Shown here piece by piece: positions 7,359-22,888 of a DNA stretch of 38,526 nucleotides; position 1 is the first letter of the stretch, and each line of letters starts with the position of its first letter. Made by a program: the position numbers and the translations under genes. Below the pieces are notes generated by a model, which worked only from the letters and a program-made list of their open reading frames with translations, was not told where the DNA came from and ran no database searches. Location: positions 1 to 38,526 of the forward strand of contig JARYMC010000001.1 of the NCBI GenBank assembly GCA_029907305.1, read 5' to 3'. The DNA comes from Thermoplasmatota archaeon. Its GTDB lineage: Archaea; Thermoplasmatota; E2; DHVEG-1.

Positions 7359-9761
7359 ATGCGGATGCGTTACATAAGAGGAAATAAAAAAGTAAAAAAA
7401 ATCGTTTTCAAACAGGAGGAATCTGTCTTGAAAAAAGACAGAGAAAAACCATTCAAAAAAACATCATCCTCCTCAAAAATAGATGAAAAAAAACTATTAG
7501 AAATAGAAAAAAAGATAGACGAAACCATAACAAAAAACAAAGAAACAACAGCTGAAAAAAACCTTGTAGAAAGATACTCATTCAAAAACAAACAAGGAGA
7601 AGCCATATATTTCCTAAAAGAGAAAAAAAACAATAACACTGAATCTAAAGATCTAAAAGAAGATGAAAAAGAATTTATAGAAGAACAACCAACCAATCAT
7701 AAAAACCAGGAAACAAACGGTTCTATAGATAAAAAAATAGATGAAATAATTTTTTCAAAATATGATGATAAAACAGGGGAGATAAAAACAGAAAACAGCG
7801 GAATTAAGAAAAAAGAAATCCTTTTAGAAAAGAACAAAACTGTAGACAAAAAAACAAAAAAAGAGAAAACTGCTAAAAATAGAAAATTAAGACTAAGAAT
7901 AGGAAAAAAAACCTTAAAACCAGATGAATTACCAGAAGAAGAATACGATGAAACTGAACCGCAAACTGATACTAACCTGTTGGATTCATCTGAAAAAGAT
8001 GATTTAAGTTTAACAGACATTTTGACGGCAAATGTTCAAGAAAATGGTTTAGAACATGTTTTTTTTGATGAGGTGGATATAAGTTTTGGTGGATGGAGCC
8101 CGAGGATAACTGATCAAGAAAAAAAGGATCTAGCATTGCCTTTCCAGGCTAAACCAGAGATTAAAAACGAGAACATGGTTGAGGCTGAGATACCAAAGGA
8201 ACTGTTCAAAGACAAATCCATGATAATTAAGGAGCTTGGTTTAAAAGAAAACGAATGGGAGGAGCTAGAGTTTTATCCACTAAAAGAGCCGTTTGCTTAT
8301 GTAGAAATATTACGTGAAAAAGAAAGCCTTGATAAACGCTATTTTTTAGTTGAAGTTGATTTAGATGAAGAAGAACAAAGGCTGGTAAAATTTATCACAG
8401 AAACCCTAACTACTTTATCAATAAATTATTTAGAGATGCAGTCAACTGGTGATGAGAAGTATCTGGTAAATAAAGTGGATGAGGTTATCAAAGAGTATGG
8501 TCTTAAAATAAGAGATGAGTCTAAAAAAAAGATATTGTATTATATCGAAAAAAGTTCTCTAGGGCTTGATAAAATAGATCCACTTATGAGGGATCCTAAC
8601 ATTGAGGACATATCATGTGATGGAGCTAACATACCAATCTTTTTGTATCATAGGAAGTATGGTTCACTTAAGAGCAATATTGATTTTAAAAGTGAGGATG
8701 AGCTTTCTTCTTTTATTTTTAAGCTTGCTCAGAAATGTGGTAAACACATAAGCATAGCGGAACCCATGCTGGATGCAACAATGCCAGATGGCTCAAGGAT
8801 ACAGATGACGCTTAGCGATGAGATCACTGCTAAGGGTTCAACGTTTACAATCAGGAAGTTTAGGGAAAACCCGTTCTCGCCACCTGATCTGGTTGAGTTT
8901 AACACGATGTCATCAGAGATGCTAGCTTATATGTGGCTTGCTGTTGAAAACGGTGTTAACACACTCATAGCAGGTGGAACAGCCAGTGGCAAAACCACTG
9001 TACTAAACGCACTCTCACTGTTTATCCCACGAGAATCAAAAATAGTAAGCATAGAAGAAACACGTGAAATCAACCTACCACACCCCAACTGGATACCAGG
9101 AGTAGCAAGAACAGGATTCGGAGAAATCGTACAAGACAAAATGGTCGGAGAAATAGACATGTACGACCTAATGAAAGCAGCACTAAGACAGAGACCAGAA
9201 TACATAATAGTAGGAGAAATCAGAGGAAAAGAAGCATACGTACTATTCCAAGCAATGGCAACAGGACACGCAACATACTCAACAGTACACGCAGACTCAG
9301 CTAAATCACTTATACACAGGCTTGAGGGTAAACCCATTGAGATACCTAGGATTATGTTACAGTCGCTTGATATTGTAACCATTCATATAACCACGCGTGT
9401 TAAAGGTAAACGTGTTAGGAGATGCAAGCAGATCATTGAGATAATAGACATAGATCCTACGACAAAAGAGATTCTTACAAACGAGGCTTTCCACTGGGAT
9501 CCTGTTGAGGACAAGTTCATCTACACTGGTAAAAGCTATGTTTTAGAGGGTATACGGGCCCGCTGGGATATGAACAAAGAGGAGATTGTTAATGAGCTTA
9601 GAAAAAGAGCTGAGATCCTAGAGTGGATGCGTGAAAAAAATGTTAGGACATTCAAAGAAGTAGCAAGGGTTATATCAAAGTATGCTGAAAACCCTGAAGA
9701 GGTTATGAAATTAGTTAAACAAAAAAAAGATGAAAACGTGATAAAAGATGCCTCTAACTAA
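7359..9761 (+). CDS. Type IV filament/secretion ATPase (FlaI/TadA/VirB11 superfamily) with a long Lys/Glu-rich N-terminal extension
   Basis: Walker A 'GGTASGKTT' (8974-9000), 'SIEETREI', Walker B-like 'PEYIIVGEIRGKEA', and 'GHATYSTVHA'. The first ~300 aa are low-complexity K/E/N-rich. Confidence 0.9.
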   Translation: MRMRYIRGNKKVKKIVFKQEESVLKKDREKPFKKTSSSSKIDEKKLLEIEKKIDETITKNKETTAEKNLVERYSFKNKQGEAIYFLKEKKNNNTESKDLKEDEKEFIEEQPTNHKNQETNGSIDKKIDEIIFSKYDDKTGEIKTENSGIKKKEILLEKNKTVDKKTKKEKTAKNRKLRLRIGKKTLKPDELPEEEYDETEPQTDTNLLDSSEKDDLSLTDILTANVQENGLEHVFFDEVDISFGGWSPRITDQEKKDLALPFQAKPEIKNENMVEAEIPKELFKDKSMIIKELGLKENEWEELEFYPLKEPFAYVEILREKESLDKRYFLVEVDLDEEEQRLVKFITETLTTLSINYLEMQSTGDEKYLVNKVDEVIKEYGLKIRDESKKKILYYIEKSSLGLDKIDPLMRDPNIEDISCDGANIPIFLYHRKYGSLKSNIDFKSEDELSSFIFKLAQKCGKHISIAEPMLDATMPDGSRIQMTLSDEITAKGSTFTIRKFRENPFSPPDLVEFNTMSSEMLAYMWLAVENGVNTLIAGGTASGKTTVLNALSLFIPRESKIVSIEETREINLPHPNWIPGVARTGFGEIVQDKMVGEIDMYDLMKAALRQRPEYIIVGEIRGKEAYVLFQAMATGHATYSTVHADSAKSLIHRLEGKPIEIPRIMLQSLDIVTIHITTRVKGKRVRRCKQIIEIIDIDPTTKEILTNEAFHWDPVEDKFIYTGKSYVLEGIRARWDMNKEEIVNELRKRAEILEWMREKNVRTFKEVARVISKYAENPEEVMKLVKQKKDENVIKDASN

Positions 9762-10611
9762 TTACCAGAAAATGTGTTACAGGAGACTAGGTGATGTCGC
9801 GGAAAATGCGGTTACTGAAAAGCTTAAACAAAACCTTGAGAGCGCACACATTGAGATGCGCGCCGGTGCATACCTCTCATATGCATGGGTTAACACCGTA
9901 TTAGCTGGTACAATAGCTGTTTTACTTTATCTTTCTTTTATCATGCTAATTAAAATGGAGCTAGTTATAACCTTGTTACTAGCAATATTCCCAGCTCTTG
10001 CAACTCTCGGTATCTATCTTTATTATATGCATGCACCTGGTTTAAAGGCTAGGGCACGTGGTAAAAAAATCGATTTGCATCTACCTTATGCGCTTAATTT
10101 TATTTCAGCTATGTCATCCGCTGGTATAACGCCTACAGAGATCTTTAAAAGTCTTTCTAAACAGGATATCTATGGTGAGATAAGGGATGAGGCTCTTTGG
10201 ATATACCGTGATGTCAGCCTCTTAGGTAAAGATATCATCTCTGCTATAAAAGCAAACATAAACAGGACTCCCTCTGCTAAGTTCAAAGAGTTTCTACAGG
10301 GTGCTGTTGTAACCGTTCAATCAGGTGGTAGCCTTAAACCATATTTTATGGCAAAGGCTGATCAGTACATGCGTGAAAACAGGTTGGCGCAGAAACAACT
10401 CATAGAAAGTTTAGGGATCATGGCTGAGTGTTATGTTACAGCAGCGGTTGCAGGTATACTGTTGGTTATAATAATTATACCTCTTATGATGATGATATCC
10501 CAAAGTGGTACAGGTCAGTTGATTATTATGAATCTCTTCTCCTTTTTTGTTATACCCCTAATACATGTGGGGTTTGCGGTGGTTATTGCGCTTATGACTA
10601 CGAGGGTGTAA
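9748..10611 (+). CDS. Platform membrane protein, single T2SSF domain (FlaJ/TadB/TadC-like), half 1
   Basis: TM helices flank the cytoplasmic 'LPYALNFISAMSSAGITPTEIFKSL...GKDIISAIKANINRTPSAKFKEFLQGAVVTVQSGGSL'. Overlaps the ATPase stop by 14 nt. Confidence 0.8.
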   Translation: MPLTNYQKMCYRRLGDVAENAVTEKLKQNLESAHIEMRAGAYLSYAWVNTVLAGTIAVLLYLSFIMLIKMELVITLLLAIFPALATLGIYLYYMHAPGLKARARGKKIDLHLPYALNFISAMSSAGITPTEIFKSLSKQDIYGEIRDEALWIYRDVSLLGKDIISAIKANINRTPSAKFKEFLQGAVVTVQSGGSLKPYFMAKADQYMRENRLAQKQLIESLGIMAECYVTAAVAGILLVIIIIPLMMMISQSGTGQLIIMNLFSFFVIPLIHVGFAVVIALMTTRV

Positions 10612-10615
10612 AAAA

Positions 10616-11530
10616 ATGGTTGCGGAAATAAAAAAACCTAGTTTGATAAAAAACCTGATTCTCACAGGGCAGCTTACCAGACTAATAATATACCTATGTG
10701 TGACTATACCTGCTATAATTTTTATTATCTTTGCCCTGTTGGTTCATCTGGGCTTGACGGGCCCACTTGTTATAGGACCTCTACGTATCGGTACATCCTT
10801 GGATTTCATCCTTTTCGCGATCTTCCTTGGCACAGGAACATTTGGTATATATGAATATTTTCATATGCGTAGGGTTCGTAAGATAGATGACAGGTTCCCT
10901 GATTTCGTCCGTGACCTAGCTGAGTCTAGGCGTGCTGGTATGACTTTCACAAAAGCAATCTTGTATGCATCTAAGGGGAACTATGGTGTTTTAACATCTG
11001 AGATAAAAAAGATATCACAGCAGATATCCTGGGGTAGTAGCGTGGAGGAGGCTCTGGCTGCTTTTGCCAAGAGGGTTAACACAAGGTTAATTAGGAGGAT
11101 TATTTCTTTGATTATTGAGGCTAGCCGTAGTGGTGGTAACGTTGCTGATGTGCTTGATGCTGCATCTAGGGATGCAAGGGAGATAAGGTTGTTGGAGCGT
11201 GAGAGAAGATCAAATATGATGTCCTACGTGGCAATAATCTATGTTGGTATGGGTATATTTCTGTTGATAATCGCCATATTATGTGTTACCCTTATCCCTG
11301 CTATGACTGGTGAAGGATCCGCAGCTCTTTCAGCTGCAACAGGTGGAAAAGGGATGATCACAAAAGCAGACATAGTCCCTGTGTTTTTTTATGCTAACCT
11401 TTCTCAGAGTATCGGTATGGGGCTGGTGACAGGTGTTTTTGAGGAGGGGAATGTTGCCTCAGGGATAAAACATGTTTTTATAATGTCTCTGGTGACATGG
11501 GTTGTGTTCAAGTTTGTGATAGGGTTGTAG
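10616..11530 (+). CDS. Platform membrane protein, single T2SSF domain, half 2
   Basis: 'FPDFVRDLAESRRAGMTFTKAI...SWGSSVEEALAAFAKRVNTRLIRRIISLIIEASRSGGNVADVL' plus C-terminal TM helices. Starts 4 nt after the previous stop, in a different frame. Confidence 0.8.
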   Translation: MVAEIKKPSLIKNLILTGQLTRLIIYLCVTIPAIIFIIFALLVHLGLTGPLVIGPLRIGTSLDFILFAIFLGTGTFGIYEYFHMRRVRKIDDRFPDFVRDLAESRRAGMTFTKAILYASKGNYGVLTSEIKKISQQISWGSSVEEALAAFAKRVNTRLIRRIISLIIEASRSGGNVADVLDAASRDAREIRLLERERRSNMMSYVAIIYVGMGIFLLIIAILCVTLIPAMTGEGSAALSAATGGKGMITKADIVPVFFYANLSQSIGMGLVTGVFEEGNVASGIKHVFIMSLVTWVVFKFVIGL

Positions 11531-11538
11531 AGGTTATG

Positions 11539-11579
11539 AAAAAAAAAAATTTGTTTAAATTTTGTCAGAAATGACAAAA
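11539..11579 (+). promoter_or_regulatory. Shared upstream motif AAAAAAAATTTGTTTAA(A/G)TTTGTC plus an 8-bp hairpin
   Basis: 'aaaaaaaaaatttgtttaaattttgtc' recurs at 15110-15133 upstream of the next pilin-like gene. 'ttttgtca-gaaa-tgacaaaa' (11560-11579) is a perfect inverted repeat. Confidence 0.35.
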
Positions 11580-11657
11580 CGTCACGATATGATTAAATAC
11601 TAGTTTAGATAAAGTATAGCGTATTGAGGGGTGTGTTGCACATCTGGTGAAAATGGT

Positions 11658-14600
11658 ATGAAGAAAAATAACAGAGCGGTTTCACCTGTGATCTCAGCTG
11701 TTTTAGCTTTGATGATTGTTACTTCCACGATGACCGCTGTTTTCGTCTGGGGTGTACCATATATTGATCAGATTAACACTGTTACATCCATAGAAAACTC
11801 TTTAAACCAGTTCACCTCATTTATTGATTCTATAGGTGAGTTGACTAATTCCTATGTTAATGATAGTAGAATAAACACGTTAGGTGTTAGTAAGGGTAGT
11901 GTTTCTGCTGGTGTTGACGAAGGAGGAAAAGACAGGGTTGTTGTTACGTATTCATATGATGAGGGTTATGATTTCACTGTATCTGGTTTGGATACCTGTT
12001 TTTTAGCTGGGACAAAGGTTTTGATGGCAGATGAGTCTTATAAGAACATTGAAGAGATAAATATTGGTGACATGGTTTTATCATATGATGAACATCTTGG
12101 CAGGGTTGTTTCCTGTAGGGTAGTTAATGTTTTTGCTCATCATCCTAGTGAGATGGGTGATTATTATCTTGTAATAAATGATGGTTTGAGGGTTACTCCT
12201 AATCATAGGTTTTATTCTAATGGTAGATGGGTTTATGCCGGTAATCTAAGAGTCGGGGACCCGTTGTTTGGTAAGGATATGGGTTCTAACTATCAGGTTG
12301 TTTCTATTAAAAAAATATATGAGCGGGAGCAGAGTTTTGATTTAGAAGTTGAAGGTTGTCATACGTATTTTGTATCAGTTGGTGGTGTTGATGTTCTTGT
12401 GCATAATGATGATGTGCAATCCCCTGAAAATAAATTGGTTCTATACCCTGAAAAGGATACACATATTAGGGAATTTCACAACACTAAAACTGGTGAAGAT
12501 CATCGGTACCTAAATTTTGGTGGATCTCCAAAACTTAGTGTAGATCTACTCGCTGATCTATTTGGGATATTTTTGGGGAGAGAACATATTCTCATTAAAT
12601 TTGATCTAACAAGCATCCCGATTGGTTCAACCATAGTATCCGCGAAATTAGGCTTATATTATTACGAGTGGGGATATAAAAATTTGTGGTATGATAATCC
12701 TTCCGGTAAAAAACTTGAATGCCATAGGTTAAAGCGTGATTGGAAGGAAGGAAATGGACCGGATGAAGGGATAAGAGGGAACGCAAATTGGTTTAATTCA
12801 ACAGATGATGAAAAGTGGGATATCCTGGGAGGGGACTACGATAATGCTGTTACAGCCTCTGCAGAAATGCCAAACATAGGTAAGGATCCCCCTTATGATC
12901 CTGCATGGATTTATTTGGATGTAAAAAGCGATGTAATAAAATTTTTAAATGACGCACCAAATCATGGGTGGCTACTAAAATATGAAGATCCCCAATATGG
13001 AGTTATTCGGAGTTTTTTAGCTAATTTTACCTCAAATGAAACCACTGTTCAAGATCCGAATACTGGTGATATCGCGAGACCAAAACTAGAAATCATATAC
13101 CTGAAAACAGAAACACTTGGTGCAACCAATGTCCAGAAAAACCGTGCTACTCTTAAGGGCAAAGTAGTCTCATATGGTAATGGTTGTAAATATGGTTTTT
13201 ATTATAGAAAATATGGTACTGACAACTGGTTTTTTACAGGATGGCCAAACATAAATATGACGACAAATGGAGAATTCAGCAAACCTATACAAGGGCTTTC
13301 ACCTGGGTGTCTGTATGAGTACCGTGCGAGCATAAAATGCACATACCAATCCACTGATTACATAAATAACGGGTCTATCATGTATTTCCTTACACCTGGG
13401 GAGATAACCAATTTTAATGCAACTGCTGTTACACCTAGGGATATAATTCTTAAATGGGATCTAGTTGATAACGCAAAGGGGGCATACATTGAATGGTTTA
13501 CAACCCCACCGCCAAGCCCATGGAATCCAGAGCCTTATAACCAAAGCCGTAACAAGGTAGGCATAGATGGTTATTGCGAGGGTGAAAGTTTTCAACATAC
13601 TGGTCTAACACCAAGGACAACCTATTATTACAAGGCATGGGCATATGCTCGTAATAGTGGTTGGATATCAAATGGTAGTGCAACTGCTCCATTTGGAAAC
13701 ACATGTACTAAAGAGGAGGAAACATTTGATGCACCAATCATTTTTACTTATCCGTCACCAAATGTGAATCGTTCAAGGGATGCGACACTAAGAGGACTTC
13801 TCACACATACTACAACTGGAGAAAACTGTATGGTTTGGTTTGATTATGGTCTAACCCCAGCATGTGGCACTGCATCCAAAGACCGTGATTGGACAAATGG
13901 AACTGGTACGTATGATTTTAATATAACCATTGATGGGTTAAAACCAGGTACAAAATACTATTACCGCGCAGTATACGAAGCCGTATACGGAGGAGGCTAT
14001 AAATGTAGATATAGAGACCCAAATATCTCTAGTTTTACAACTCTTATAAACGACTTGGAGGTTGTTTCACCTCAATATAGTGACAGCTGGATAAAAGGGA
14101 TCACCCATAAAATAGAATGGTACTATGGACCAAAGTTAAAAGGTACTAACGTAACTATTGAGTTATATATAGGAAAAGATCCTTGTTATGGAGCAATAGA
14201 TGGGTATGATTACGTGGAGCTGCCCATAAACTATAGTGGAACCGATAAAAACGGGTCATTTAACTGGGTTATACCAAAGAATCTATCCAGTGGTAAATTC
14301 ATCTATAGGATAAAGATAACTAGTGTTTTTGACCAGAATATATATGATTACAGTGATTATTTTTCAATAAGAGATATACATGAAGGAATAGTGTGGAATA
14401 GAACAATAACACCAACACACGAAGGAGACAACAGATATCGGGTTAACTGTGGGTCATCTAGTTGTGAGGGAGATGAATCTTTTAATATCACAATGATAAA
14501 AGGTATTTTAACTAGAGCCGAGGTATACGGGCTTTATTACGGGGGAGAACTATGTGATTGCTCGTTCAGAGGAACAGTACAAATAGACCTATATAACGAT

Positions 14601-15068
14601 AGTTATTGTTTTGGTAGCATCATCCTCCTGGATTCTGATTCCTTAACCTACGAATCTCCATCTAGTAGCGGAACCTATATTTCAACAATTGAAAACGGCG
14701 GGCTTTTATATTCTGATCCCAACATAAATAAATATCTGAAAAAAACACCACCTATTTATGCTGGTGGAGGTGTTTTTTCAATGCATGCGATACAAATTGT
14801 TGCATCACCTTTTTCAGCAGGGGGAAGCAATGGTTTTAGGATCAGGGTAAAAACCGTTGTTAACGTAAACAGTATAAGAGAAAAGGATTATGTTTATAAT
14901 CTTAGACTACAGTTTTATGGTGACAACTCTGATTTGTGGTTAAAATATTTCAGGATTAACTACCCTGTTTTTGAGAGGCAGGGTGACACATTGTTTTATA
15001 CCTCTTCTTCTACATCTAAACTGTGGTTTGTGTTTTCACATACCGCGATTCAGATCAGTTTTGTATGA
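11658..15068 (+). CDS. Giant pilin-like surface protein: class III signal peptide, Hint domain, DNRLRE-like, FN3-like and Kre9/KNH-like modules, pilin-like C-terminal domain
   Basis: The ATG at 11658 is preceded by GGTGA (11646-11650). The track ORF starts at the GTG at 11631. N-terminus is 'MKKNNRAVSPVISAVLALMIVTSTMTAVFVWG'. Other motifs are 'ILIKFDLTSIPIGSTIVSAKLGLYYY' and FN3-like 'GLTPRTTYYYKAWAY' and 'GLKPGTKYYYRAVYE'. The N- and C-terminal ends resemble ORF 15194. Confidence 0.8.
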   Translation: MKKNNRAVSPVISAVLALMIVTSTMTAVFVWGVPYIDQINTVTSIENSLNQFTSFIDSIGELTNSYVNDSRINTLGVSKGSVSAGVDEGGKDRVVVTYSYDEGYDFTVSGLDTCFLAGTKVLMADESYKNIEEINIGDMVLSYDEHLGRVVSCRVVNVFAHHPSEMGDYYLVINDGLRVTPNHRFYSNGRWVYAGNLRVGDPLFGKDMGSNYQVVSIKKIYEREQSFDLEVEGCHTYFVSVGGVDVLVHNDDVQSPENKLVLYPEKDTHIREFHNTKTGEDHRYLNFGGSPKLSVDLLADLFGIFLGREHILIKFDLTSIPIGSTIVSAKLGLYYYEWGYKNLWYDNPSGKKLECHRLKRDWKEGNGPDEGIRGNANWFNSTDDEKWDILGGDYDNAVTASAEMPNIGKDPPYDPAWIYLDVKSDVIKFLNDAPNHGWLLKYEDPQYGVIRSFLANFTSNETTVQDPNTGDIARPKLEIIYLKTETLGATNVQKNRATLKGKVVSYGNGCKYGFYYRKYGTDNWFFTGWPNINMTTNGEFSKPIQGLSPGCLYEYRASIKCTYQSTDYINNGSIMYFLTPGEITNFNATAVTPRDIILKWDLVDNAKGAYIEWFTTPPPSPWNPEPYNQSRNKVGIDGYCEGESFQHTGLTPRTTYYYKAWAYARNSGWISNGSATAPFGNTCTKEEETFDAPIIFTYPSPNVNRSRDATLRGLLTHTTTGENCMVWFDYGLTPACGTASKDRDWTNGTGTYDFNITIDGLKPGTKYYYRAVYEAVYGGGYKCRYRDPNISSFTTLINDLEVVSPQYSDSWIKGITHKIEWYYGPKLKGTNVTIELYIGKDPCYGAIDGYDYVELPINYSGTDKNGSFNWVIPKNLSSGKFIYRIKITSVFDQNIYDYSDYFSIRDIHEGIVWNRTITPTHEGDNRYRVNCGSSSCEGDESFNITMIKGILTRAEVYGLYYGGELCDCSFRGTVQIDLYNDSYCFGSIILLDSDSLTYESPSSSGTYISTIENGGLLYSDPNINKYLKKTPPIYAGGGVFSMHAIQIVASPFSAGGSNGFRIRVKTVVNVNSIREKDYVYNLRLQFYGDNSDLWLKYFRINYPVFERQGDTLFYTSSSTSKLWFVFSHTAIQISFV
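11997..12407 (+). other. Hint (Hedgehog/intein-like) domain, copy 1, 137 aa
   Basis: Starts at Cys ('CFLAGTKVLMADESY'), has block B 'VTPNHRF', and ends 'GVDVLVHN'. The next residue is Asp (12408-12410). No endonuclease insert. Confidence 0.75.
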
Positions 15069-15109
15069 TGATGCAGATTCTTTGTTTTAATAATATCATA
15101 TTTTTAAAG

Positions 15110-15150
15110 AAAAAAAATTTGTTTAAGTTTGTCTACGTAGTATTTATATA
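15110..15150 (+). promoter_or_regulatory. Shared upstream motif plus TATA-like box for ORF 15194
   Basis: 'aaaaaaaatttgtttaagtttgtc' (15110-15133) is followed by 'tatttatata' (15141-15150), ~45 nt before the ATG. Confidence 0.35.
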
Positions 15151-15193
15151 AGAGAAATAGGATTACTTGTTATAATTTGAGTGGGATAGTTGG

Positions 15194-16192
15194 ATGCATA
15201 CTCTTAGTAATTATGCTGTAACTGAGGTTCTAAGTCTTGTCACTGTTGTTATAATTGCATCATCAGCTATCACCGCGGTGCTTTTATGGGCTATACCAGA
15301 GTTGGATGCTAAGAAGCAGTCTGTTCGTATTGATAGTGCTTTGACACAGTTTAAGACCATAAGAGATGTTATAGAGGATGTTACCAGCGGTGGTGCTGGT
15401 GCAAGTAATTTCGTTGATTTTGTAACAGATGCTGGTGATGTTTCCTTGGATTCTAAAGGCGATAGGTTTATTTTTTACTATTCGCTTGTTGAAGGTTTTG
15501 ATTTCAATGTATCTAATCTTGGTGATAGTTACGATAGAAAATTTGGTTTTAAAATAGAAAGCGCTGCTGGACCTGGATCCGCTGTGGATTCTTTTTTAAC
15601 AATATATTATCTATATAGTGGCGAATCGGAAACCGTACCAATTACTAATCAAGTTGAAATCTCTAAGAATTTAGCAGATGCCGTTAAAATAGATGTTACC
15701 TATTCTGGTAAAATTTCTGGTCGTATCTGGCTTTTTGACTCAGGATACTTATCATACGAAGTAGCATCCAGCTCCGGGGTTTTTAGGCTTTTTGCTGAGA
15801 ACGGAGCAACTATCTCAGTATACCCCTCTGGTTATCTATACCATAAACCTGGTTTTTACAACAAAGATAACTCAGTTGTTATGAAAATGATACAGATAAA
15901 ACCAGGTGATATAAGAGGTGGAAGCGGGAAAGGCGTATACAAATTCCTAATCAGATCAAATGCTAGCTACGTAAGAGAGGTTAAAGCAGATATACATGGA
16001 TGTTTTAAAATGCAGATATATGGGGGTAACAGTGAGGCTTGGGTAAGGTTTTACACGATGGAACATGGTTTCAAAAAATTTGGTTCAACCCAAGGAGGTT
16101 CTCTCTCTCAAGATACATTGTATCTGGAGGCGGGTAAAACCTTTTCGCTTGTTCAATCAGTTTGTGATGCTAGGTTGGTGGAAATAAAATGA
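15194..16192 (+). CDS. Pilin-like protein (class III signal peptide), 332 aa; uninterrupted paralog of the ORF 11658 scaffold
   Basis: N-terminus 'NYAVTEVLSLVTVVIIASSAITAVLLWAIPELD'. Both N- and C-terminal regions align by eye with ORF 11658. Confidence 0.7.
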   Translation: MHTLSNYAVTEVLSLVTVVIIASSAITAVLLWAIPELDAKKQSVRIDSALTQFKTIRDVIEDVTSGGAGASNFVDFVTDAGDVSLDSKGDRFIFYYSLVEGFDFNVSNLGDSYDRKFGFKIESAAGPGSAVDSFLTIYYLYSGESETVPITNQVEISKNLADAVKIDVTYSGKISGRIWLFDSGYLSYEVASSSGVFRLFAENGATISVYPSGYLYHKPGFYNKDNSVVMKMIQIKPGDIRGGSGKGVYKFLIRSNASYVREVKADIHGCFKMQIYGGNSEAWVRFYTMEHGFKKFGSTQGGSLSQDTLYLEAGKTFSLVQSVCDARLVEIK

Positions 16193-19100
16193 GGAGTATA
16201 ACCTACGATAGAAAGGGTGTTTCAAATATTCTTGGTTACGTTTTTTCATTTGGCGTAGCATCTATGTTGATGATTAGCGCTGTTCTTATAACCACAGGTA
16301 TACTTGATAACAGAACCGCTGCTGTTGCAGGTATGCAGGCTCAGAGTGTTGCCAACAAGATAGCAGACGCGGTTGTAGAGGCAATCGCGGTACTACAGTC
16401 TCCATCTAACATGGGTTATAAAAAAACCTTGGATATACCTATGGATATAGCTGGGCGTAGCTACTATGTTGATGTCACAGATAAACTGATATACGTAAAC
16501 ACCACAGATGGGCTGGTGAGCAGAAGCTGCCCAACCTACACAGCTGAGGACCTAAAAATCGGTGTTGGTGGTGGTAGAACATATTGTGGTGGCGTAGGCA
16601 AGATCAATGTTTCTGTTGATAAATCTGATACACTCTATAAACTGGATTTCGGATCAGGAAACACAACCAGGCATTCACCTGTTGCATCAGGATATTATTT
16701 TGTGAGTAACACATCTGCAATAAAGCCTGAGTTAAGGGACCCACCTTGGTGGAATACTAGTTATACAAACAGGGTTCCAATATTGATAAACAACACCTCA
16801 CCATATGATCTGGTAAATGTACCAGTTAAGGTAGTTCTCAACACATCAAATTTTGATTACAGCAAGGCAAATGTGGTTTTTGAAGAATCTTCTTCAAATT
16901 TTACATCTAATCTTGTTTTTAATGACCCCTCAGATAATGCTGTGACTAAGATCGAAATCCTTACAAAGGAATGGAACCCTGGTTGGTTTTATACTTACTA
17001 CTATCCTACTGAAAACACTGTTACTGTTAGAATCAAAGAGATTGCTGGAGGATATGATATATCCTACATAAGAGGAGAAACCATTAAGTTAAACGGAAAT
17101 GTAAAAAGAAAATCATGGGATGCATCTACAGGTATTGCTAAATTTGATGGCAAAGAAGCTCTGGAGTCGCTTGAAAACGGGGAACATTTCCTAAAAAAAT
17201 CTAGGTACACTGTTACTGTTTCTGGTTTACTTAAAAACGGGGTTGAATTCTACGGCTTAGGAGATATATCTATAAATGCTGTGTACGTTCGCCCCGGGGA
17301 TAGCATAAAAAATGCTATTCAGAGATCATCCCCAGGGGGCACGGTTTTTGTATACAAAGGAACATATGTTGAAGAGGGTTTAAGTATAAATAAACCGTTG
17401 AATCTTATTGGCGAAAGCAGGGATGAAACTATTTTTAATGTAAATAAAAGTTATAAAACTGCCATCAATATAGATAGCACATCTTATGTAAATATCGACT
17501 CCTTCTGGGTATACCCAAAGCTACAATCTAATGAACCTGGGAGTGGACCTGGGATTGGTATAGATGTCAGTAAGTGTGAACATGTTAATATCACAAACTG
17601 TAGGATAAACAAAACTGCAAAAGGCATAAGAATAGGTGATTTATCATCTGATGTTTCTATATCAAATTGTTTAACATATGACATAACGCCCTCCGACGAC
17701 GTGCGTGGGAATGGAATAGCTGTTGCGAACAGCAAATACGTTCGTATCACAAACTGCACAACATATCATCTTAATACAACCCTTGGCGACGGTTTTGATA
17801 TTCGCTCATCTGAGTACGTCGATGTAATAAGATGCATATCTCATAGCCATTATGGAAAGAGGGCAAATGGGGTAAAGTTAATAGCTAGTAATCATTGTAA
17901 CGTAATAGACAGCAGGTTCTATAATCTCACTGGTAACGCAACAGCTGGTGTAGAGATCTGCGCAGATGTTAATGGAAACCCAAGCAAATATAATGTGGTA
18001 AAAGGCTGTGTTATATATGGGAACAACGCATCTGGTGCTCCAAATGATGTAGGACGCGGGGTTTATATCGCGGATGCGGGCACTGATTATAACATTATTG
18101 AGAATTGTACTATTTACAAAAACAGCATAGGCATACAATTTACAACTATTATTGCTTATGAGTTTGAAAAACTCAGCCTCATATTGGAAGGGCTCCTTGA
18201 TTTTTTTAAGGAGGGACCAAAATCTCATAACAGTATACTAAACTGTAGTATATACGAAAATCTAAACCATGGCATAGCTTTTTTCCATATGCTAGGTAAT
18301 AATATCAGCAACTGCAACATTTATAACAATGGCATAAACCCAAACATGGGTACATCGTTTGATGACCCATGTGGCATTCTTCTCGTAGCTTCTGGAAAAA
18401 ACAACATAACAAATTGTAACATCTATAAAAACGGTCTAAGTGATAAATCGGGTGGCTGTGGTCTTATTTTAATATTTGCTGGATGGAACCATATAGAATA
18501 TTGTAACATATATGGCAACATTAAAAGTAGCAGCCATCTCAAGTCTGGGGATGGTATTAAACTTATGTCATCTTATGGTACTTTTTCTCTGACAGGATGC
18601 GGATTTAACGAAATAAAATATTGTAATGTCTTTGATAACGGCAGAGATGGCCTCGAGTTATACAAAGGCAACACTTTAAACAAAATTTCCAATTGCAATT
18701 TCTATTGCAATGGTGAAAAAGGAGTCTACATTAGTGGTATTAATCCTTCTAATCAGATAGAGTATAGCAATTTCGAAAAAAACGGTGAAAATGCCAATGA
18801 TAGTATATTAGGAGGAATAAATTCTTGGAATGGAAATTTTTGGGATGACTTTGAATCTAATTGTGGACACGATGATGGTTATTATTGTATCCCACCTGGT
18901 ATTTGTGGGGAGGAGAAATGTCTTGGTCATGGAGATGATAACCCGCGATCTACTCGTAACCCAAATCCTGCTTTTTTCCAAGTTGACTACAGTTACTCTG
19001 CTGAGGATTTCTACCACACGCGATCAATAAAAAATGCACTACAAAACATGGATACCATGGAAGTTGGAGGGACTGTAAAGGTTTATGCTGGTACTTATAA

Positions 19101-21633
19101 CGGCATCGTAACAATAAAACAAGCAAATGTTAAGCTAATAGGCGAAGGAAACGTTATTGTCAGTGGTAATGATCCACCACTGAAATCAACAGCTATCACT
19201 GTGAAAAATTATAGTGTCAGCATAGAAGGATTAACAATAAAAGATAGCCTAAGAGGAATATGGTATAAAAATAACCTTTCTTCAGGAGGTTTACCTTTAA
19301 AAATCAAAAATTGCAAAATAGAAAACAATACCCAAGAAGGCATTTATCTAGGGGGAAACAGCAACAACTACTGCATTATAAATAGCTGTAACATATCCAA
19401 CAATAAATATGGCATATATGGTGGTACAAATGGTAACAAAATCATAGACTGCACCATCAAAAATAACAATGATGCTGGTGTTAAAATCAAAAACCGTAAT
19501 TCAAATAACTTCACAAACTGCACTTTATCTAATAACAAAATCGGTTTCATCATAGAATCTGGTTCTGATAACATCATCATCAACTCCAGGATACTTAATC
19601 ATGAAAACGAGGGTATCAAAATCTCAGGCTCCTCTAATAACAATATTTTGAATTGTAATGTAAATGGTAATAATGAAGGTATTAGTATCACAGGTTCTTC
19701 CACTAACAACAAGATTTCAAACTGTACTATAAATTACAACGCTAAGGGCATCTATATTGATTCCTTAGGAAATGCTAGCTATAACGAGATCAGTTACTCT
19801 AATATATCTGGTAGTACAAATGGTGTAGAGATAAAAGATTCTTTTGACAATACTATCACGTACTGTAATATTTATAACAATAGCAACGGCGTCTATATAC
19901 ATGACAACACTCCGCTATCATGTAATTATATTCTTTGCGAGAATATTATCACAAACTGCAGCATATATAATAACAATAATTACGGTGTTTTGACTAATAC
20001 ATCATCATATTACAACAAAATATATCACAACATTTTTAAAAACAAAAAAAACGCTAACGCTAAGGAAAAAAAATATCCGAACATATGGGATAATGGTTAC
20101 CCAAGTGGTGGAAACCTATGGTCTGACTATGATGACGAATCAGATAATGCCTTTGACTACTTCAGCGGAGAAAGCTATCCCCCTGGAGGTCAAGAGGACC
20201 CTGGCAGCGACGGCATAGCAGACAAACCATACAACAAAAACGGTGTGAAAGACAAATATCCATTCTGTAGAAAAAACCCTAGGATACCCTACTACATAGA
20301 TTACTGGAACCCACATGGTGAATCTGTGATCCTAGTAAACATAAGCATAGGAGCACACTCAGCTAAATGCATAAATCTATACTATGGGTATGATGGAGCA
20401 TTAGAAAAAATCCATAATCATACCATGAATGAGATATCACTGTTTTTTGATGACTTCCTCGGAACTAGTATTGATACAAACAAGTGGCTACGGCTACAAG
20501 CTTCAGAACCAATTACGCCGAAATATAAAGTCCAAGACGGGTGTATCAATTTTTCAGATGAAGGAAACATCACAACAAAAGATTTTGCCATACCAGATAT
20601 TGGGGATCCACCAAAAAATACACTGTCTCTAACCACAAACGAGTCAATGTACATCGTTGAAGCAAAAATGAAAATAAACAGAGGGCAGGGTAATATGATT
20701 TTACTGAAAATAGGCACTAATAGATCCTACTATTTAGTTTCAGCTAATGCAACACCATCACATACCCTCTCTCTTCATAAAAATTGTTTACCTCCACATA
20801 AAACATTTTATGAATTAGATAATGCCCCCTCATCAAACCTAAGCCACTGGATAAGAATGAAAGCCTACATACACCTAAGCAAAACCTACTACCCAGACCC
20901 ATATAATCCAAGCAAGTACTTACAAACAAATGCTACATTTATAAAAACCTATGTCTATGATTACAATACATTTGCTGATCTAGCCAGCGTCTCAGCTTTA
21001 GATACATGGAGCTACCCAGGAAGTTGGTCTGAGCCACCATACGAAGCAGCACAAGGCAAACCATATCCATACCCAGGACACAATGGTAAAATTGGTTTAG
21101 GATCCGGAATACTATCCTCAGAAGTTAGCAACGTCTTAATCGACTGGATAAGGGTAATGAAAACCCCGGTTGTTCAACCAACAGTCACAGTTGGAAGCAT
21201 GGAATCCATAAACTACGGATGGGACACATCAGGTGTAAAAACCTGGAACACAAACAACCCAAACCCATTTGAGCTAACAAACCCAGTGCTCTGTGATTTC
21301 AACTATGGTATTAGTAGCCCCACTGGGCCGAGCTTAAGTATAAACTTTGTAATAAAAAATTTACCCGCTGGTAAATATACTATCACAGTTACAAAAGGTA
21401 ACTACACAAACACAACCGACCAAATAACAGTTACAGTTACAGAAACCGGCAGCGAATCCAAAGAAATGAATATCCCAGATACAGACTACGGTAAATTCGA
21501 AACAAAATGGGTTACAATAAACAAAGAAAAAGATAACAGTGATATAAACATTGTTTTTTCCGGTAAAAAATGGCTTGTAAACTCAATTATCATAGACCGA
21601 GGAGCAAAAGGCGTTAAAGTAGGATGGGAATAA
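16189..21633 (+). CDS. Giant (1814 aa) pilin-like surface protein with DUF2341-like, two parallel beta-helix (PbH1/NosD-like) arrays and a LamG-like region
   Basis: ATGA overlap with the previous stop. N-terminus is 'RKGVSNILGYVFSFGVASMLMISAVLITTG'. DUF2341-like segment is 'WWNTSYTNRVPILINNTSPYDLVNVPVKVVLNTSNFDYSKAN'. Beta-helix array starts are 'GDSIKNAIQRSSPGGTVFVYKGTYVEEGLSINKPLNLIGE' and 'SIKNALQNMDTMEVGGTVKVYAGTYNG'. There are dozens of 'I.NC.IYNN..GI' turns. Confidence 0.8.
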   Translation: MRSITYDRKGVSNILGYVFSFGVASMLMISAVLITTGILDNRTAAVAGMQAQSVANKIADAVVEAIAVLQSPSNMGYKKTLDIPMDIAGRSYYVDVTDKLIYVNTTDGLVSRSCPTYTAEDLKIGVGGGRTYCGGVGKINVSVDKSDTLYKLDFGSGNTTRHSPVASGYYFVSNTSAIKPELRDPPWWNTSYTNRVPILINNTSPYDLVNVPVKVVLNTSNFDYSKANVVFEESSSNFTSNLVFNDPSDNAVTKIEILTKEWNPGWFYTYYYPTENTVTVRIKEIAGGYDISYIRGETIKLNGNVKRKSWDASTGIAKFDGKEALESLENGEHFLKKSRYTVTVSGLLKNGVEFYGLGDISINAVYVRPGDSIKNAIQRSSPGGTVFVYKGTYVEEGLSINKPLNLIGESRDETIFNVNKSYKTAINIDSTSYVNIDSFWVYPKLQSNEPGSGPGIGIDVSKCEHVNITNCRINKTAKGIRIGDLSSDVSISNCLTYDITPSDDVRGNGIAVANSKYVRITNCTTYHLNTTLGDGFDIRSSEYVDVIRCISHSHYGKRANGVKLIASNHCNVIDSRFYNLTGNATAGVEICADVNGNPSKYNVVKGCVIYGNNASGAPNDVGRGVYIADAGTDYNIIENCTIYKNSIGIQFTTIIAYEFEKLSLILEGLLDFFKEGPKSHNSILNCSIYENLNHGIAFFHMLGNNISNCNIYNNGINPNMGTSFDDPCGILLVASGKNNITNCNIYKNGLSDKSGGCGLILIFAGWNHIEYCNIYGNIKSSSHLKSGDGIKLMSSYGTFSLTGCGFNEIKYCNVFDNGRDGLELYKGNTLNKISNCNFYCNGEKGVYISGINPSNQIEYSNFEKNGENANDSILGGINSWNGNFWDDFESNCGHDDGYYCIPPGICGEEKCLGHGDDNPRSTRNPNPAFFQVDYSYSAEDFYHTRSIKNALQNMDTMEVGGTVKVYAGTYNGIVTIKQANVKLIGEGNVIVSGNDPPLKSTAITVKNYSVSIEGLTIKDSLRGIWYKNNLSSGGLPLKIKNCKIENNTQEGIYLGGNSNNYCIINSCNISNNKYGIYGGTNGNKIIDCTIKNNNDAGVKIKNRNSNNFTNCTLSNNKIGFIIESGSDNIIINSRILNHENEGIKISGSSNNNILNCNVNGNNEGISITGSSTNNKISNCTINYNAKGIYIDSLGNASYNEISYSNISGSTNGVEIKDSFDNTITYCNIYNNSNGVYIHDNTPLSCNYILCENIITNCSIYNNNNYGVLTNTSSYYNKIYHNIFKNKKNANAKEKKYPNIWDNGYPSGGNLWSDYDDESDNAFDYFSGESYPPGGQEDPGSDGIADKPYNKNGVKDKYPFCRKNPRIPYYIDYWNPHGESVILVNISIGAHSAKCINLYYGYDGALEKIHNHTMNEISLFFDDFLGTSIDTNKWLRLQASEPITPKYKVQDGCINFSDEGNITTKDFAIPDIGDPPKNTLSLTTNESMYIVEAKMKINRGQGNMILLKIGTNRSYYLVSANATPSHTLSLHKNCLPPHKTFYELDNAPSSNLSHWIRMKAYIHLSKTYYPDPYNPSKYLQTNATFIKTYVYDYNTFADLASVSALDTWSYPGSWSEPPYEAAQGKPYPYPGHNGKIGLGSGILSSEVSNVLIDWIRVMKTPVVQPTVTVGSMESINYGWDTSGVKTWNTNNPNPFELTNPVLCDFNYGISSPTGPSLSINFVIKNLPAGKYTITVTKGNYTNTTDQITVTVTETGSESKEMNIPDTDYGKFETKWVTINKEKDNSDINIVFSGKKWLVNSIIIDRGAKGVKVGWE
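17281..20056 (+). other. Right-handed parallel beta-helix repeat region (two NosD/pectate-lyase-like arrays)
   Basis: Periodic ~22-25 aa units such as 'NITNCRINKTAKGIRI', 'NISNCNIYNNGIN', 'NITNCNIYKNGLS', 'IEYCNIYGN', 'IINSCNISNNKYGIY', 'ILNCNVNGNNEGISI'. Confidence 0.75.
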
Positions 21634-21639
21634 AAAAAA

Positions 21640-22230
21640 ATGGATGAAAAAGCCCAGATGATGGTAATAGAATCAATAGTTTTCACAATCACCATACTCG
21701 TCGCCCTAATCTTCTTCTACCAACTATCACCAACCACAACAGTCAGTAACATATACACAAACGACCTAAAAATCAAAGGCGACGACGCCCTTAGAACACT
21801 ATACAACGACCAAGTTACAGTAGATTTACCAAAAAATTTCCCAAAAAACAAACTCATATTCTACCTGATAAAAGACAGCTACGAAAGCATGGTTCTACAC
21901 CTACAAAGCAAACTCCCATCAAACACCATATTCAACATATACATAAGCAACGGAACAAACAAGACATTTTGGTGCTCATCCGCCATAAATAACGCAACAC
22001 CTTTACCAGTTACAGAACCAGTCACAATATCACACTACATAATATCAATACATCCACAGTTTTTCAACCAATCAAAATTTCCAAGTATAATCAGCAATGA
22101 TGGTTGTGAAATAGCAAAAGCATTCAACGTATATAAAATGGATGAGTATGGAAAAATTGACATAACAAAAATAAGAGAAGACTACAAAGACTCCACATAT
22201 GATGTGATACTAGAAATGTTCTACACATAA
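21640..22230 (+). CDS. Small pilin-like protein (class III signal peptide)
   Basis: N-terminus 'MDEKAQMMVIESIVFTITILVALIFFYQL'. 196 aa, 6 nt after the preceding stop. Confidence 0.55.
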   Translation: MDEKAQMMVIESIVFTITILVALIFFYQLSPTTTVSNIYTNDLKIKGDDALRTLYNDQVTVDLPKNFPKNKLIFYLIKDSYESMVLHLQSKLPSNTIFNIYISNGTNKTFWCSSAINNATPLPVTEPVTISHYIISIHPQFFNQSKFPSIISNDGCEIAKAFNVYKMDEYGKIDITKIREDYKDSTYDVILEMFYT

Positions 22231-22265
22231 AGAAAAAAACAAAAAAAAAACATAATGAGGATGTT

Positions 22266-22778
22266 ATGAAAAACAAAAAACATAACAAAAAAAACAGAAA
22301 ACTATGCGATCAAAAAAACGGGCAGATGATAATAATAATGGGGGTAGTACTAGCACTCATAATCTTCGTAATAGCCTCACTATCAGCCGACATAATAAAC
22401 CTCAACGTGATAATATCAAATGAAAGAGCCACATCAATAGTATCCGAGTTCAACTACATAAAAGAAGCTTTTGGAACATCCCTAAACTACAATCTAATAA
22501 ACAATGTTACCAGACAAACCGAAGAAAAAGAAAGCTTTTTGATATTCCAAGGAGACATTCATGGTATCACAGAAGCATTCAATCAAACCAGAGACACGTT
22601 CTACACCATAGAGCTAAACTACAGCAGAGTCTTCGATGCAAATCTAAACAAATACTGGTATTCACATAAAAGCGATGAAAACCACATATACCATGTTAGC
22701 GTAACCCTATCACTCTACGACGGAAAAACCTACATAGCTGAAAACGTTGTGTACTCCATACTATGCGAACCATCATAG
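22266..22778 (+). CDS. Small pilin-like protein (class III signal peptide)
   Basis: Basic leader followed by 'KNGQMIIIMGVVLALIIFVIASL'. 'gagg' lies upstream of the ATG. Confidence 0.55.
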   Translation: MKNKKHNKKNRKLCDQKNGQMIIIMGVVLALIIFVIASLSADIINLNVIISNERATSIVSEFNYIKEAFGTSLNYNLINNVTRQTEEKESFLIFQGDIHGITEAFNQTRDTFYTIELNYSRVFDANLNKYWYSHKSDENHIYHVSVTLSLYDGKTYIAENVVYSILCEPS

Positions 22779-22888
22779 AACAAAATCATAAAAAGAGAGG
22801 AATAATGCCAAAATGACATAATCTCATAAAAAATTTAAATAACAAAAATTGAAAAGTATAATATTAATAGTATGTGGAGAAAAAGCTC

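Follow-up and report, generated by a model that had tools for sequence, protein, structure and literature searches.

The stretch of DNA considered here, referred to as the window, comprises the 38,526 nucleotides (nt) at positions 1 to 38,526 of the forward strand of contig JARYMC010000001.1, from a Thermoplasmatota archaeon (GenBank assembly GCA_029907305.1). It is low-GC archaeal DNA, at about 37% GC, and harbors one co-directional gene cluster, spanning nt 7359-26041, that encodes an ATPase, two membrane proteins and six proteins in which a short, charged N-terminus leads into a hydrophobic helix. This account is concerned mainly with two adjacent genes of this pilus-like cluster, A (open reading frame (ORF) 11658) and B (ORF 15194), and with a third, C (ORF 22889), that lies further downstream. 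An earlier note on the same DNA had proposed that A looks like B split by a long cassette, which begins exactly at the first cysteine of a Hint domain. The genes and their parts are listed below, each with the evidence from which it was drawn, including models made with AlphaFold2 (AF2) and high-scoring segment pairs (HSPs) from BLASTP.

11658-15068, + strand: gene A, a split DUF7289-like minor-pilin-like protein of 1136 aa (ORF list).
11658-11996, + strand: N part of A, aa 1-113, ending in FTVSGLDT (BLASTP HSP1, profile, AF2).
11997-12407, + strand: Hint domain of A, aa 114-250, of the type A bacterial intein-like (BIL-A)/PT-HINT kind (PF07591, PDB sequence matches, residue table).
12510-13094, + strand: DNRLRE/CBM96-like domain, of carbohydrate-binding type, aa 285-479 (NF033679, E=2.2e-11, 44 bits, cut-off 34).
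13110-14051, + strand: β-rich region, aa 485-798, weakly FN3-like (sub-threshold Pur_ac_phosph_N/fn3 matches, AF2 strands).
14067-14369, + strand: Kre9/KNH-like Ig-like domain, aa 804-904 (PF10342, 30.5 bits on the segment, cut-off 24.6).
14466-14549, + strand: displaced hairpin, A937-964, ESFNITMIKGILTRAEVYGLYYGG (alignment to the relative P0047, MAFFT).
14550-15065, + strand: C part of A, aa 965-1136, homologous to about residues 160-332 of B (BLASTP HSP2, profile, AF2).
15194-16192, + strand: gene B, an unsplit DUF7289-like paralogue of 332 aa (about 40 homologues of similar length; AF2).
15521-15679, + strand: B residues 110-162, a loop/hairpin equivalent to the insertion hot spot of the family (divergence from contig L001, described below).
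22889-26041, + strand: gene C, a second Hint-bearing pilin-like protein, 1050 aa (Pfam PT-HINT 54.7 bits, PKD_4 60.9 bits).

The homology between A and B falls into two collinear blocks. With query spans of 11658-15065 for A and 15194-16189 for B, BLASTP returns a first HSP between A4-111 and B5-109 (35% identity, E=4e-14) and a second, collinear one between A973-1111 and B163-299 (30% identity, E=5e-11). A profile built from 38 B-family proteins recognizes the same two stretches, with A2-114 matching profile positions 3-112 at 66 bits and A969-1128 matching positions 161-319 at 78 bits, and a MAFFT alignment places B1-110 onto A1-112 and B114-332 onto A939-1136. Formal pairwise and profile alignment thus bears out the proposal that A resembles B split by a cassette, with significant similarity at both termini, and the four segments that had been aligned by eye all lie inside the two HSPs. 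The homology ends between Thr113 and Cys114, and since Cys114 is residue 1 of the Hint domain the break does fall exactly at the Hint cysteine. The insertion is real, but its size, which had been put at ~780 aa, is about 825 aa relative to B (A114-938). For A, a GTG start at 11631 was set aside in favor of the ATG at 11658; its orthologues begin MKKNN or MEKKN. The nearest public relative of the window is contig L001, from a Thermoplasmatota metagenome-assembled genome (MAG; GCA_050410955.1), whose operon DNA is about 98% identical and in which the orthologue of A was called at 1136 aa and is 99.4% identical.

Against DUF7289 (PF23960), A scores 19.0 bits and B 18.7 bits, below the cut-off of 27 and over the N-terminal 60-80 aa only. 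On these profile scores the two proteins are relatives of DUF7289 rather than members by the Pfam threshold, because their own scores are sub-cut-off though most B-family relatives carry a precomputed PF23960 match. The N-terminus of A resembles a class III signal (MKKNNRA followed by VSPVISAVLALMIV), and in the AF2 model a long helix at aa 8-63 leads into four β-strands within aa 70-109. A charged N-terminus running into the start of a hydrophobic helix (MKKNNRA, then VSPVISAVLALMIVTSTMTAVFVWGVPYI) is a type IV pilin-like feature, the helix covering residues 8-63 in A and 4-66 in B. The genetic context is also of type IV pilin-like character, as genes for an ATPase and a T2SSF/FlaJ/TadC platform adjoin A and B.

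The modules that lie between the two parts of A were largely as first described. The PT-HINT (58 bits), DNRLRE (E=2e-11) and Kre9/KNH (30.5 bits) domains of the cassette stand, and the three FN3-like modules that had been placed among them are weakly supported: two of the three segments give sub-threshold fn3 or Pur_ac_phosph_N matches, the first gives no match, and the AF2 β-strands in this region are predicted with a low local confidence score (pLDDT). The CBM96 match on the DNRLRE-like domain reaches 24.5 bits, slightly below its cut-off. The Kre9/KNH-like module is found directly after the Hint domain in the relatives P0046 and P0045, the latter a compact orthologue of 576 aa. With its DNRLRE/CBM96-like, Kre9/KNH and Hint domains, A contains the non-pilus modules that mark modular pilins.

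The split architecture extends well beyond this locus. A profile search returned 917 proteins at E<=1e-3, 214 of them at E<=1e-30, and the B profile and a Hint profile were mapped onto the best 150 representatives of the 917, to which the counts that follow refer. These 150 comprise 57 split proteins, with separate N and C stretches, alongside 81 unsplit ones and 12 fragments. B itself has about 40 close, full-length homologues of about 330 aa, all from metagenomes or Thermoplasmatota MAGs, and most of them carry the precomputed PF23960 (DUF7289) match. In the 57 split members the insert measures between 61 and 1951 aa (median 580); the median end of the N stretch is profile position 142 (inter-quartile range 138-144), typically in IYWLN(D/E)T, and the C stretch restarts at about 146-160. 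Pfam was run on the proteins of the window, and the cassettes of the relatives, judged by eye, are very diverse, with PKD-, FN3-, DUF2341/LamG-, DNRLRE/CBM96-, vWA- and Kre9-like segments and β-propeller-type repeats. The C part is kept at the extreme C-terminus behind every type of cassette. The suggestion that the fold is loaded with cargo in a modular way is well supported by this pattern of 57 members split at one hot spot and filled with diverse cassettes. A third insertion site is seen in P0173, within the C part at profile position about 226, and is occupied by a β-propeller array some 380 aa long.

A Hint domain is present in 27 of the 57 split members and directly follows the N part in 21 of them. 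In the other six it lies in the middle of the cassette or at its end, examples of such placement being P0155, P0179, P0172, P0198, P0202 and P0221, so the cassette is not always Hint-led. The search for cassette-free orthologues of A, which had been proposed as a check, found none: among loci L001-L006, L008 and L009, the complete gene upstream of the unsplit paralogue is always split and Hint-bearing. At L007 the upstream gene is cut by the contig end, and L010 lacks an unsplit copy but has two split ones. The split, Hint-led design is ancient and widespread in this archaeal lineage.

The cassette does not enter at a single point. In A, P0215, P0045/P0046 and the A orthologues of L001-L006 and L008 the break is early, at profile position about 112 (FTVSGLDT followed by CFLAGT), and the hairpin that normally precedes the insertion stands after the whole cassette; in P0047, P0054, P0139 and most others this hairpin comes before the Hint domain. 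The displaced hairpin is recognizable from the match of A937-973 to residues 121-154 of P0047 (51% identity, E=6e-5), and MAFFT sets the same region of A on B114-150. The placement of the cassette on either side of one hairpin, depending on lineage, is hard to square with a simple inter-domain linker.

The counterpart of this hot spot in B is itself unusually variable. Compared with L001 in 300-nt bins over 9700-24950, the window is essentially 100% identical except for sharply bounded patches, which range overall from 76 to 95% identity and contain indels. The strongest, at 15400-15685, has 75.7% identity with 34 gap columns, and its differences trail into the next bin (to 15985); it corresponds to about residues 112-176 of B, where unsplit proteins have their counterpart to the hot spot. 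ORF 16189, which encodes the β-helix protein, contains three more, at 18686-19285, 19886-20155 and 20756-21049. Mutagenesis by a diversity-generating retroelement was considered for the B patch and set aside, as the substitutions are not A-biased and indels are included. The patches look like the result of allelic replacement or diversifying selection at exposed loops. Because the B patch is divergent amid flanks of ~100% identity, the hot-spot loop would also be a site of rapid allelic replacement, which is consistent with an exposed surface that determines interactions.

Models and covariation were used to ask whether the N and C parts belong to one fold, the models of A and B being compared through secondary-structure order, predicted TM-score (pTM) and covariation. 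The AF2 model of B, from a 38-sequence alignment, has a mean pLDDT of 85.6 and a pTM of 0.81; an N-terminal helix of 63 residues is accompanied by about 22 β-strands and a single short helix. Neither Foldseek, with the B fold against the PDB (no match at E<=1e-3, TM below 0.2), nor the B-family profile against PDB sequences (nothing at E<=1) found a relative. In A, the N part is modeled at pLDDT 80-90 and the C part at 85-92, with the order of secondary-structure elements as in B. The structure prediction that had been proposed as a check thus gives confident N and C parts with strands collinear with those of B, together with a cassette of low confidence. Mean-field direct coupling analysis (DCA) of 125 family sequences (effective number about 115) places the pairs 109-174, 110-173 and 106-178 on one anti-diagonal, plus 102-168, among its top 60; these are four pairs from a 260-pair block for which about 0.3 would be expected. 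The analysis also recovers the AF2 hairpin 166-176/168-174. The covariation suggests an antiparallel pairing between the last strand of the N part and the conserved GRIWLFD strand in the C part, and with the models it makes it likely that the two parts form one integrated head.

The Hint domain of A is 137 aa long, with Cys114 as residue 1, TPNH at 180-183 as block B, a terminal VLVHN ending at residue 250 and Asp251 at the +1 position. It matches PF07591 (PT-HINT) at 58.2 bits, and the Hint of C does so at 54.7 bits, against a cut-off of 27.7. The closest solved sequences are 8w20_A, which is PT-HINT-containing (E=3e-15), and the BIL domain 2lwy_A (E=1.5e-8), both of which likewise terminate in VLVHN. 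Within the family, 34 of 37 Hints have Cys1 and 25 of the 37 have Thr at -1; they usually keep TxxH, and the C-terminal His-Asn is found in 29 of 30. The +1 residue varies widely (A6, S5, Q4, K4, T3, D3 and one each of R, G, E, I and P; n=30), is Ser or Thr in 8 of the 30 and is never Cys. Among the A orthologues of L001-L005 the Hint lies at the same site and is followed by D, G, D, D and A, respectively, and the C-type orthologues have P, A and L; the site is also shared by the A orthologues of L006 and L008, where the B orthologue is merely 37-40% identical.

All three sequence features of PT-HINT/A-type BIL domains are therefore found together: the family match, the catalytic motifs, and a variable surface-protein region in which a +1 nucleophile is not obligatory. 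By sequence and motifs the Hint of A is a member of the BIL-A/PT-HINT type, with predicted catalytic activity, rather than a canonical intein, because Cys1, TxxH and His-Asn are kept but the +1 residue is Asp. A canonical (class 1) intein was rejected for this residue, which is Asp251 in A and Pro in C and not Cys, Ser or Thr, and also for its site, a hypervariable loop in a variable surface host protein that holds a 137-aa mini-domain without an endonuclease. A polymorphic toxin system was rejected too, as the Hint is followed by the DNRLRE, FN3-like and Kre9 modules and the DUF7289 C part, and the adjacent gene is the paralogue B. A-type BIL domains were reportedly set out in work from 2003 (Amitai) and 2004 (Dassa). 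BIL domains lack the +1 nucleophile and give mostly N- and C-cleaved products (PMC7664689), such domains sit in hypervariable regions of secreted bacterial proteins (PMC7765530), and the BIL domain of a Pseudomonas syringae CdiA autocleaves (PMC4725963). The Hints group by orthologue set (A, X or C) and not by genome; on this grouping they are old, vertically inherited parts of their genes and not mobile inteins.

Several other features of the family Hints may be recorded here. The motif ahead of the Hint cysteine is often N-(D/E)-T, as in P0139, P0148 and P0171 (YWLNDT before the Cys), and this is also an N-glycosylation sequon. Two or three Hints occur in tandem in the split relatives P0172, P0192 and P0202, and in the group formed by these and P0210 some Hints have lost either Cys1, which is replaced by G or S, or the terminal Asn, so that they end in HD.

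Taken together, these findings lead us to favor, with moderate confidence, a reading in which A, an ancient paralogue of B, is a modular minor-pilin-like subunit whose head is split by a Hint-led cassette, with an arm displayed and the chain cut rather than spliced. The host machine would be the type IV pilus-like system of the Thermoplasmatota, in which the family contributes subunits with a class-III-signal-like N-terminus, a helix of roughly 60 residues and a β-rich head. The cassette would sit in an exposed loop of the A head in the order Hint, DNRLRE/CBM96-like domain, FN3-like β-modules and Kre9/KNH domain. A head of the B type would be rebuilt from aa 1-113, the N part, together with about aa 937-1136, the C part; the models and covariation partly support this, and the last strand of the N part would probably pair with the GRIWLFD-type strand of the C part. 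From this head, presumably located at the pilus tip, the cassette would project as an arm for glycan binding or adhesion. The Hint has the residues for an N-S acyl shift (Cys114, TPNH) and for Asn cyclization (His249-Asn250), so that cuts would be expected between Thr113 and Cys114, between Asn250 and Asp251, or at both. Because of the +1 Asp, the Hint would mainly cut rather than splice, as characterized BIL domains do, and to this extent the sequence favors the post-translational cut that had been suggested. Once cut, the head would consist of two polypeptides held together non-covalently by β-sheet complementation.

A number of points weigh against this reading. The tip location and the adhesin function are argued from domain types and analogy, and the cleavage of A from conserved residues and comparison with BIL domains. 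The cassette of A is modeled at a pLDDT below 50, the alignment being shallow there, and the DCA signal is noisy, with about 115 effective sequences and implausible top pairs such as 9-191. In P0047 and P0054 the N part and hairpin precede a Hint, behind which stand unrelated repeat domains in place of a C part; proteins of this type indicate that the N part may stand alone, and suggest either that it functions alone or that cargo is released. Finally, 30 of the 57 split members have no Hint, which is thus not required for the architecture. The idea that the Hint is what makes insertion possible falls with this count and with the length of the inserts: the median of the non-Hint insert is 597 aa with a Hint and 334 aa without (p=0.12), a difference that is not significant, and a need for the Hint in long cassettes is not supported by the same figures. 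As for P0047 itself (L011 1696-3243), it lies outside any pilus operon and adjoins an HMGL-like gene; this adjoining gene was checked and is not a DUF7289 relative.

Two alternatives deserve the closest comparison with the cut, two-part head, though both seem rather improbable. In one, the Hint excises itself and splices Thr113 to Asp251, leaving a single mature chain from whose head the rest of the cassette loops out; BIL domains, engineered or native, are capable of such splicing without a nucleophilic side chain. The junction chemistries are both intact, the Ser or Thr at +1 in 8 of the 30 family Hints includes P0045 and P0046, which read HN followed by S, and 2lwy stems, according to a reference in PMC7664689, from a paper on ligation without nucleophilic side chains. 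Splicing is nevertheless difficult to reconcile with a +1 position free of constraint (A, Q, K, D, P and others), at which the A orthologues have Asp, Gly or Ala, with the predominantly cleaved products of BIL domains (PMC7664689), and with an element that lacks a homing endonuclease and occupies a hypervariable loop instead of a conserved active site.

The other, of similarly low standing, treats the N part as a self-contained pilin module and the C part as an independent C-terminal domain; the cassette would then simply fill a linker between domains, a case of ordinary domain shuffling in which the Hint is just another module. P0047 and P0054, with N part, hairpin and Hint but no C part, speak for this; a domain boundary might also explain why the break usually falls at profile position about 142-150, and bacterial modular pilins are built in this way (PMC8179133). 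Retention of the C part at the extreme C-terminus behind all kinds of cassette speaks against it, as do the AF2 pTM of 0.81 for B, the covariation ladder from the last N-part strand to a C-part strand, and the break of the A lineage at profile position 112, upstream of the hairpin that elsewhere precedes the Hint.

It is less probable still that the Hint frees cargo from a cell-bound pilin carrier, in the manner of polymorphic toxins or Hedgehog, or that a thioester moves the C-terminus of the N part to a lipid, glycan or neighboring subunit. The best Pfam match of the domain is a pretoxin HINT and its nearest non-archaeal matches are Streptomyces polymorphic-toxin HINT proteins, the Hint directly follows the N part in 21 of 27 cases with a conserved Thr at -1, and the bacterial pilins P0056 and P0051 have a C-terminal Hint with almost nothing beyond. 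Set against these are the absence of a toxin or immunity module, the lack of any identified sterol- or lipid-recognition region, and the conserved C part behind the cargo, which argues that the cargo stays docked to the head. Very unlikely, lastly, is that the Hint serves mainly as a conserved DNA or protein handle at a recombining cassette border, as proposed for pretoxin motifs, with catalysis incidental or lost: the N part plus Hint (aa 1-252) is 57-72% identical among orthologues versus 29-47% for the remainder, modules are gained or lost immediately behind the Hint (in P0215 an additional stretch of about 100 aa stands there, and P0045 passes straight to Kre9), and the A and C Hints have common runs of 20-33 identical nt, yet the catalytic residues are under clear purifying selection, the Hints group by orthologue set with little concerted evolution, and the 30 split members without any Hint swap cassettes all the same.

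The favored reading, of a pilin-like head split by a cassette that is cut and not spliced, can be set beside several known systems. The modular pilins PilB and PilC of Streptococcus sanguinis come from a survey that is bacterial and based on IPR012902 (Raynaud et al. 2021, PMC8179133). In these, as here, a pilin module displays vWA, lectin and carbohydrate-binding modules in highly diverse architectures, and the proteins are probably tip-located. The present family differs in being archaeal and in carrying its cassette inside the head, with about 200 aa of host fold behind it, so that its modules are internal and fall outside the definition used for modular pilins; furthermore, about half of the cassettes (27 of 57) contain a predicted autoprocessing Hint. 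Minor pseudopilins of the GspK/PilX type, which are also tip-located, similarly have an extra domain between β-strands of the pilin head (PMC8179133). Theirs is a single fixed α-domain of ~100 aa, whereas here the insert is variable and multi-domain, spans 61-1951 aa and includes a possibly self-cleaving module; Foldseek and profile searches against the PDB detected no similarity to GspK/PilX in sequence or fold.

The likeness to A-type BIL/PT-HINT domains lies in the mini-Hint of ~137 aa, the Cys1, TxxH and VLVHN motifs, the lack of a +1 nucleophile and the hypervariable secreted or surface setting. In contrast to the known examples, the host is an archaeal pilin-like protein and not a bacterial toxin, adhesin or CdiA, the position is conserved among orthologues, and the Hint is followed not by a toxin but by modules of adhesin type, behind which the host fold resumes with its second half. 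The Hh-C domain of Hedgehog is a possible model for the N-side cut, in that a Hint directly follows a functional N-terminal domain with a thioester at the junction. Unlike Hh-C, no sterol-recognition region was identified here, and as the C-terminal His-Asn is kept a C-side cleavage is possible; transfer to a nucleophile would be speculative. In autoproteolytic domains of the SEA/GAIN type, the chain breaks inside a folded β-domain and the fragments stay non-covalently associated. As proposed, A would resemble these in having its chain break within a β-domain, though chemistry and fold are unrelated, since the cut would be made by an inserted Hint and theirs is made by strain in the host fold.

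Full-text searches for Hint or intein together with pilin, prepilin, archaea or toxin found no description of this architecture, most subscription journals being outside their coverage, and Hint or intein is unmentioned in Makarova 2016 (PMC4858521) and in the main text of Raynaud 2021 (PMC8179133). The split DUF7289-like family is apparently a large, archaeal and undescribed one. Its design combines a modular pilin with a BIL-type autoprocessing domain, both kinds being already known. It bears on an open theme, how simple type IV filaments gain functional diversity, to which the bacterial answer so far has been modules grafted at the C-terminus. The archaeal solution would be a different one, a conserved head with an internal hot spot that takes cassettes of up to about 1950 residues, roughly half of which have a Hint. 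If the Hint cuts, A would be the first pilin-type subunit known to us that matures by intein-like autoproteolysis, 'bacterial' intein-like domains would extend to archaeal surface biology, and the head would provide a natural split-protein scaffold for the display of large cargo.

A bolder extension can be put forward, which we consider possible but doubtful. The Hint might act as a breaker of the pilus-subunit chain after export, with its cut between the N part and the cassette, giving a two-chain, β-sheet-complemented head with a break-away adhesin arm that could detach under load, or alternatively might mediate a Hedgehog-style thioester transfer. Hints fused right behind a pilin module are seen also in a second pilin family of this operon and in minor-pilin clusters of bacteria, and on that pattern the step would be a general, undescribed one in the maturation of type IV filament subunits, crossing domains of life. 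A break-away arm, if true, would be attractive for the wall-less Thermoplasmatota.

Gene C had been said to follow the same logic as A, and the domain order agrees: an N-terminal helix is followed by the Hint (aa 128-262, nt 23270-23674, with Pro at +1), a PKD domain, a conserved β-rich part and an FN3 array. Its N part differs from that of A and has no DUF7289 match, and its orthologues keep the Hint at about aa 127. The L005 orthologue, of 612 aa, stops right after the β-rich region that follows Hint and PKD, which lends the parallel further support. From this comparison the β-rich region of C is the conserved C-terminal partner and the FN3 array an extension, the latter regarded as an add-on because the L005 orthologue ends before it. 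For C, of which no cassette-free homologue was found, a split fold would be conjectural. Pfam gave nothing significant on the two conserved halves of ORF 22889 or on the two small ORFs of the cluster. Within the FN3 array, at 24900-25900, two consecutive repeats of ~110 aa (containing PCMPRNPFPVNESINIDV and ending in SPIWNFTTYD) are almost identical, and the L001 orthologue of C is shorter, at 838 versus 1050 aa; the array suggests a recent tandem repeat expansion or contraction.

The Hint-coding DNA of A (11997-12407) and that of C (23270-23674) share several runs of 20-33 identical nt between divergent stretches, the proteins being 61% identical. Given their grouping by orthologue set, the Hints of one genome show at best weak signs of concerted evolution or gene conversion, and some conversion between these two regions is possible. 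A word-indexed search with the N part and Hint of A also brought up the bacterial pilins (N_methyl/T2SSG) P0051 and P0056, to which a Hint of this type is fused. Because these bacterial proteins carry the same kind of Hint, its position right after a pilin module is, on domain order, a recurrent theme. In P0056 (L012 2016-3266) the Hint lies near the C-terminus, and the gene belongs to a minor-pilin cluster with a prepilin peptidase A24 gene and a PilX_N gene.

The remaining genes of the cluster are as follows.

7359-9761, + strand: FlaI/T2SSE-type ATPase (NCBIfam and Pfam matches).
9748-10611, + strand: first half-size FlaJ/TadC-type (T2SSF) membrane protein (NCBIfam and Pfam matches).
10616-11530, + strand: second half-size FlaJ/TadC-type (T2SSF) membrane protein (NCBIfam and Pfam matches).
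16189-21633, + strand: ORF 16189, 1814 aa, with a DUF7266 N-terminus, β-helix/NosD and DUF2341 (Pfam).
21640-22230 and 22266-22778, + strand: two small proteins with N-terminal hydrophobic helices (gene order kept in 5 loci).

The order of ATPase, two TadC-like genes, split Hint paralogue, unsplit paralogue, DUF7266 β-helix gene, two small genes and second Hint protein is kept in L001-L005, and the pair of split and then unsplit genes is present also in L006, L008 and L009. Genes for Rpr2 and for ribosomal proteins come after the pilus-like cluster. Complex archaeal type IV pilus loci, as described by Makarova, Koonin and Albers (2016; PMC4858521), comprise an ATPase, two TadC-type proteins, at least five minor-pilin-like proteins and DUF2341 proteins, the last of which were put forward there as pilus adhesins. 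The overall layout of the window is the same, down to a large DUF2341-containing protein, but the split DUF7289-like family and its insertion hot spot are not described in that census.

Some variation among the loci concerns the ATPase and an additional paralogue. The window has one ATPase gene of 800 aa, whereas L001 and L002 each have two (772-864 aa and about 550 aa), and an ATPase of ~557 aa is seen at the locus edge in L003 and L004. Because window positions 8520-9708 align to both L001 copies (L001 622-4570 compared), the window gene looks like the product of recombination between two paralogues, by fusion or deletion, or else like a collapse in the assembly. In L003 (3027-5933) and L004 (2371-5910), a third Hint-bearing DUF7289-like paralogue, of 968-1179 aa, lies with an extra small ORF upstream of the A orthologue, and its Hint is at the later insertion point (ARLSWST before the Cys). 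Upstream of the operon, the window also contains a truncated serpin ORF at 77-610, which covers serpin model positions 192-370, and a gene for a peptidase C25 of the gingipain type at 1497-2912.

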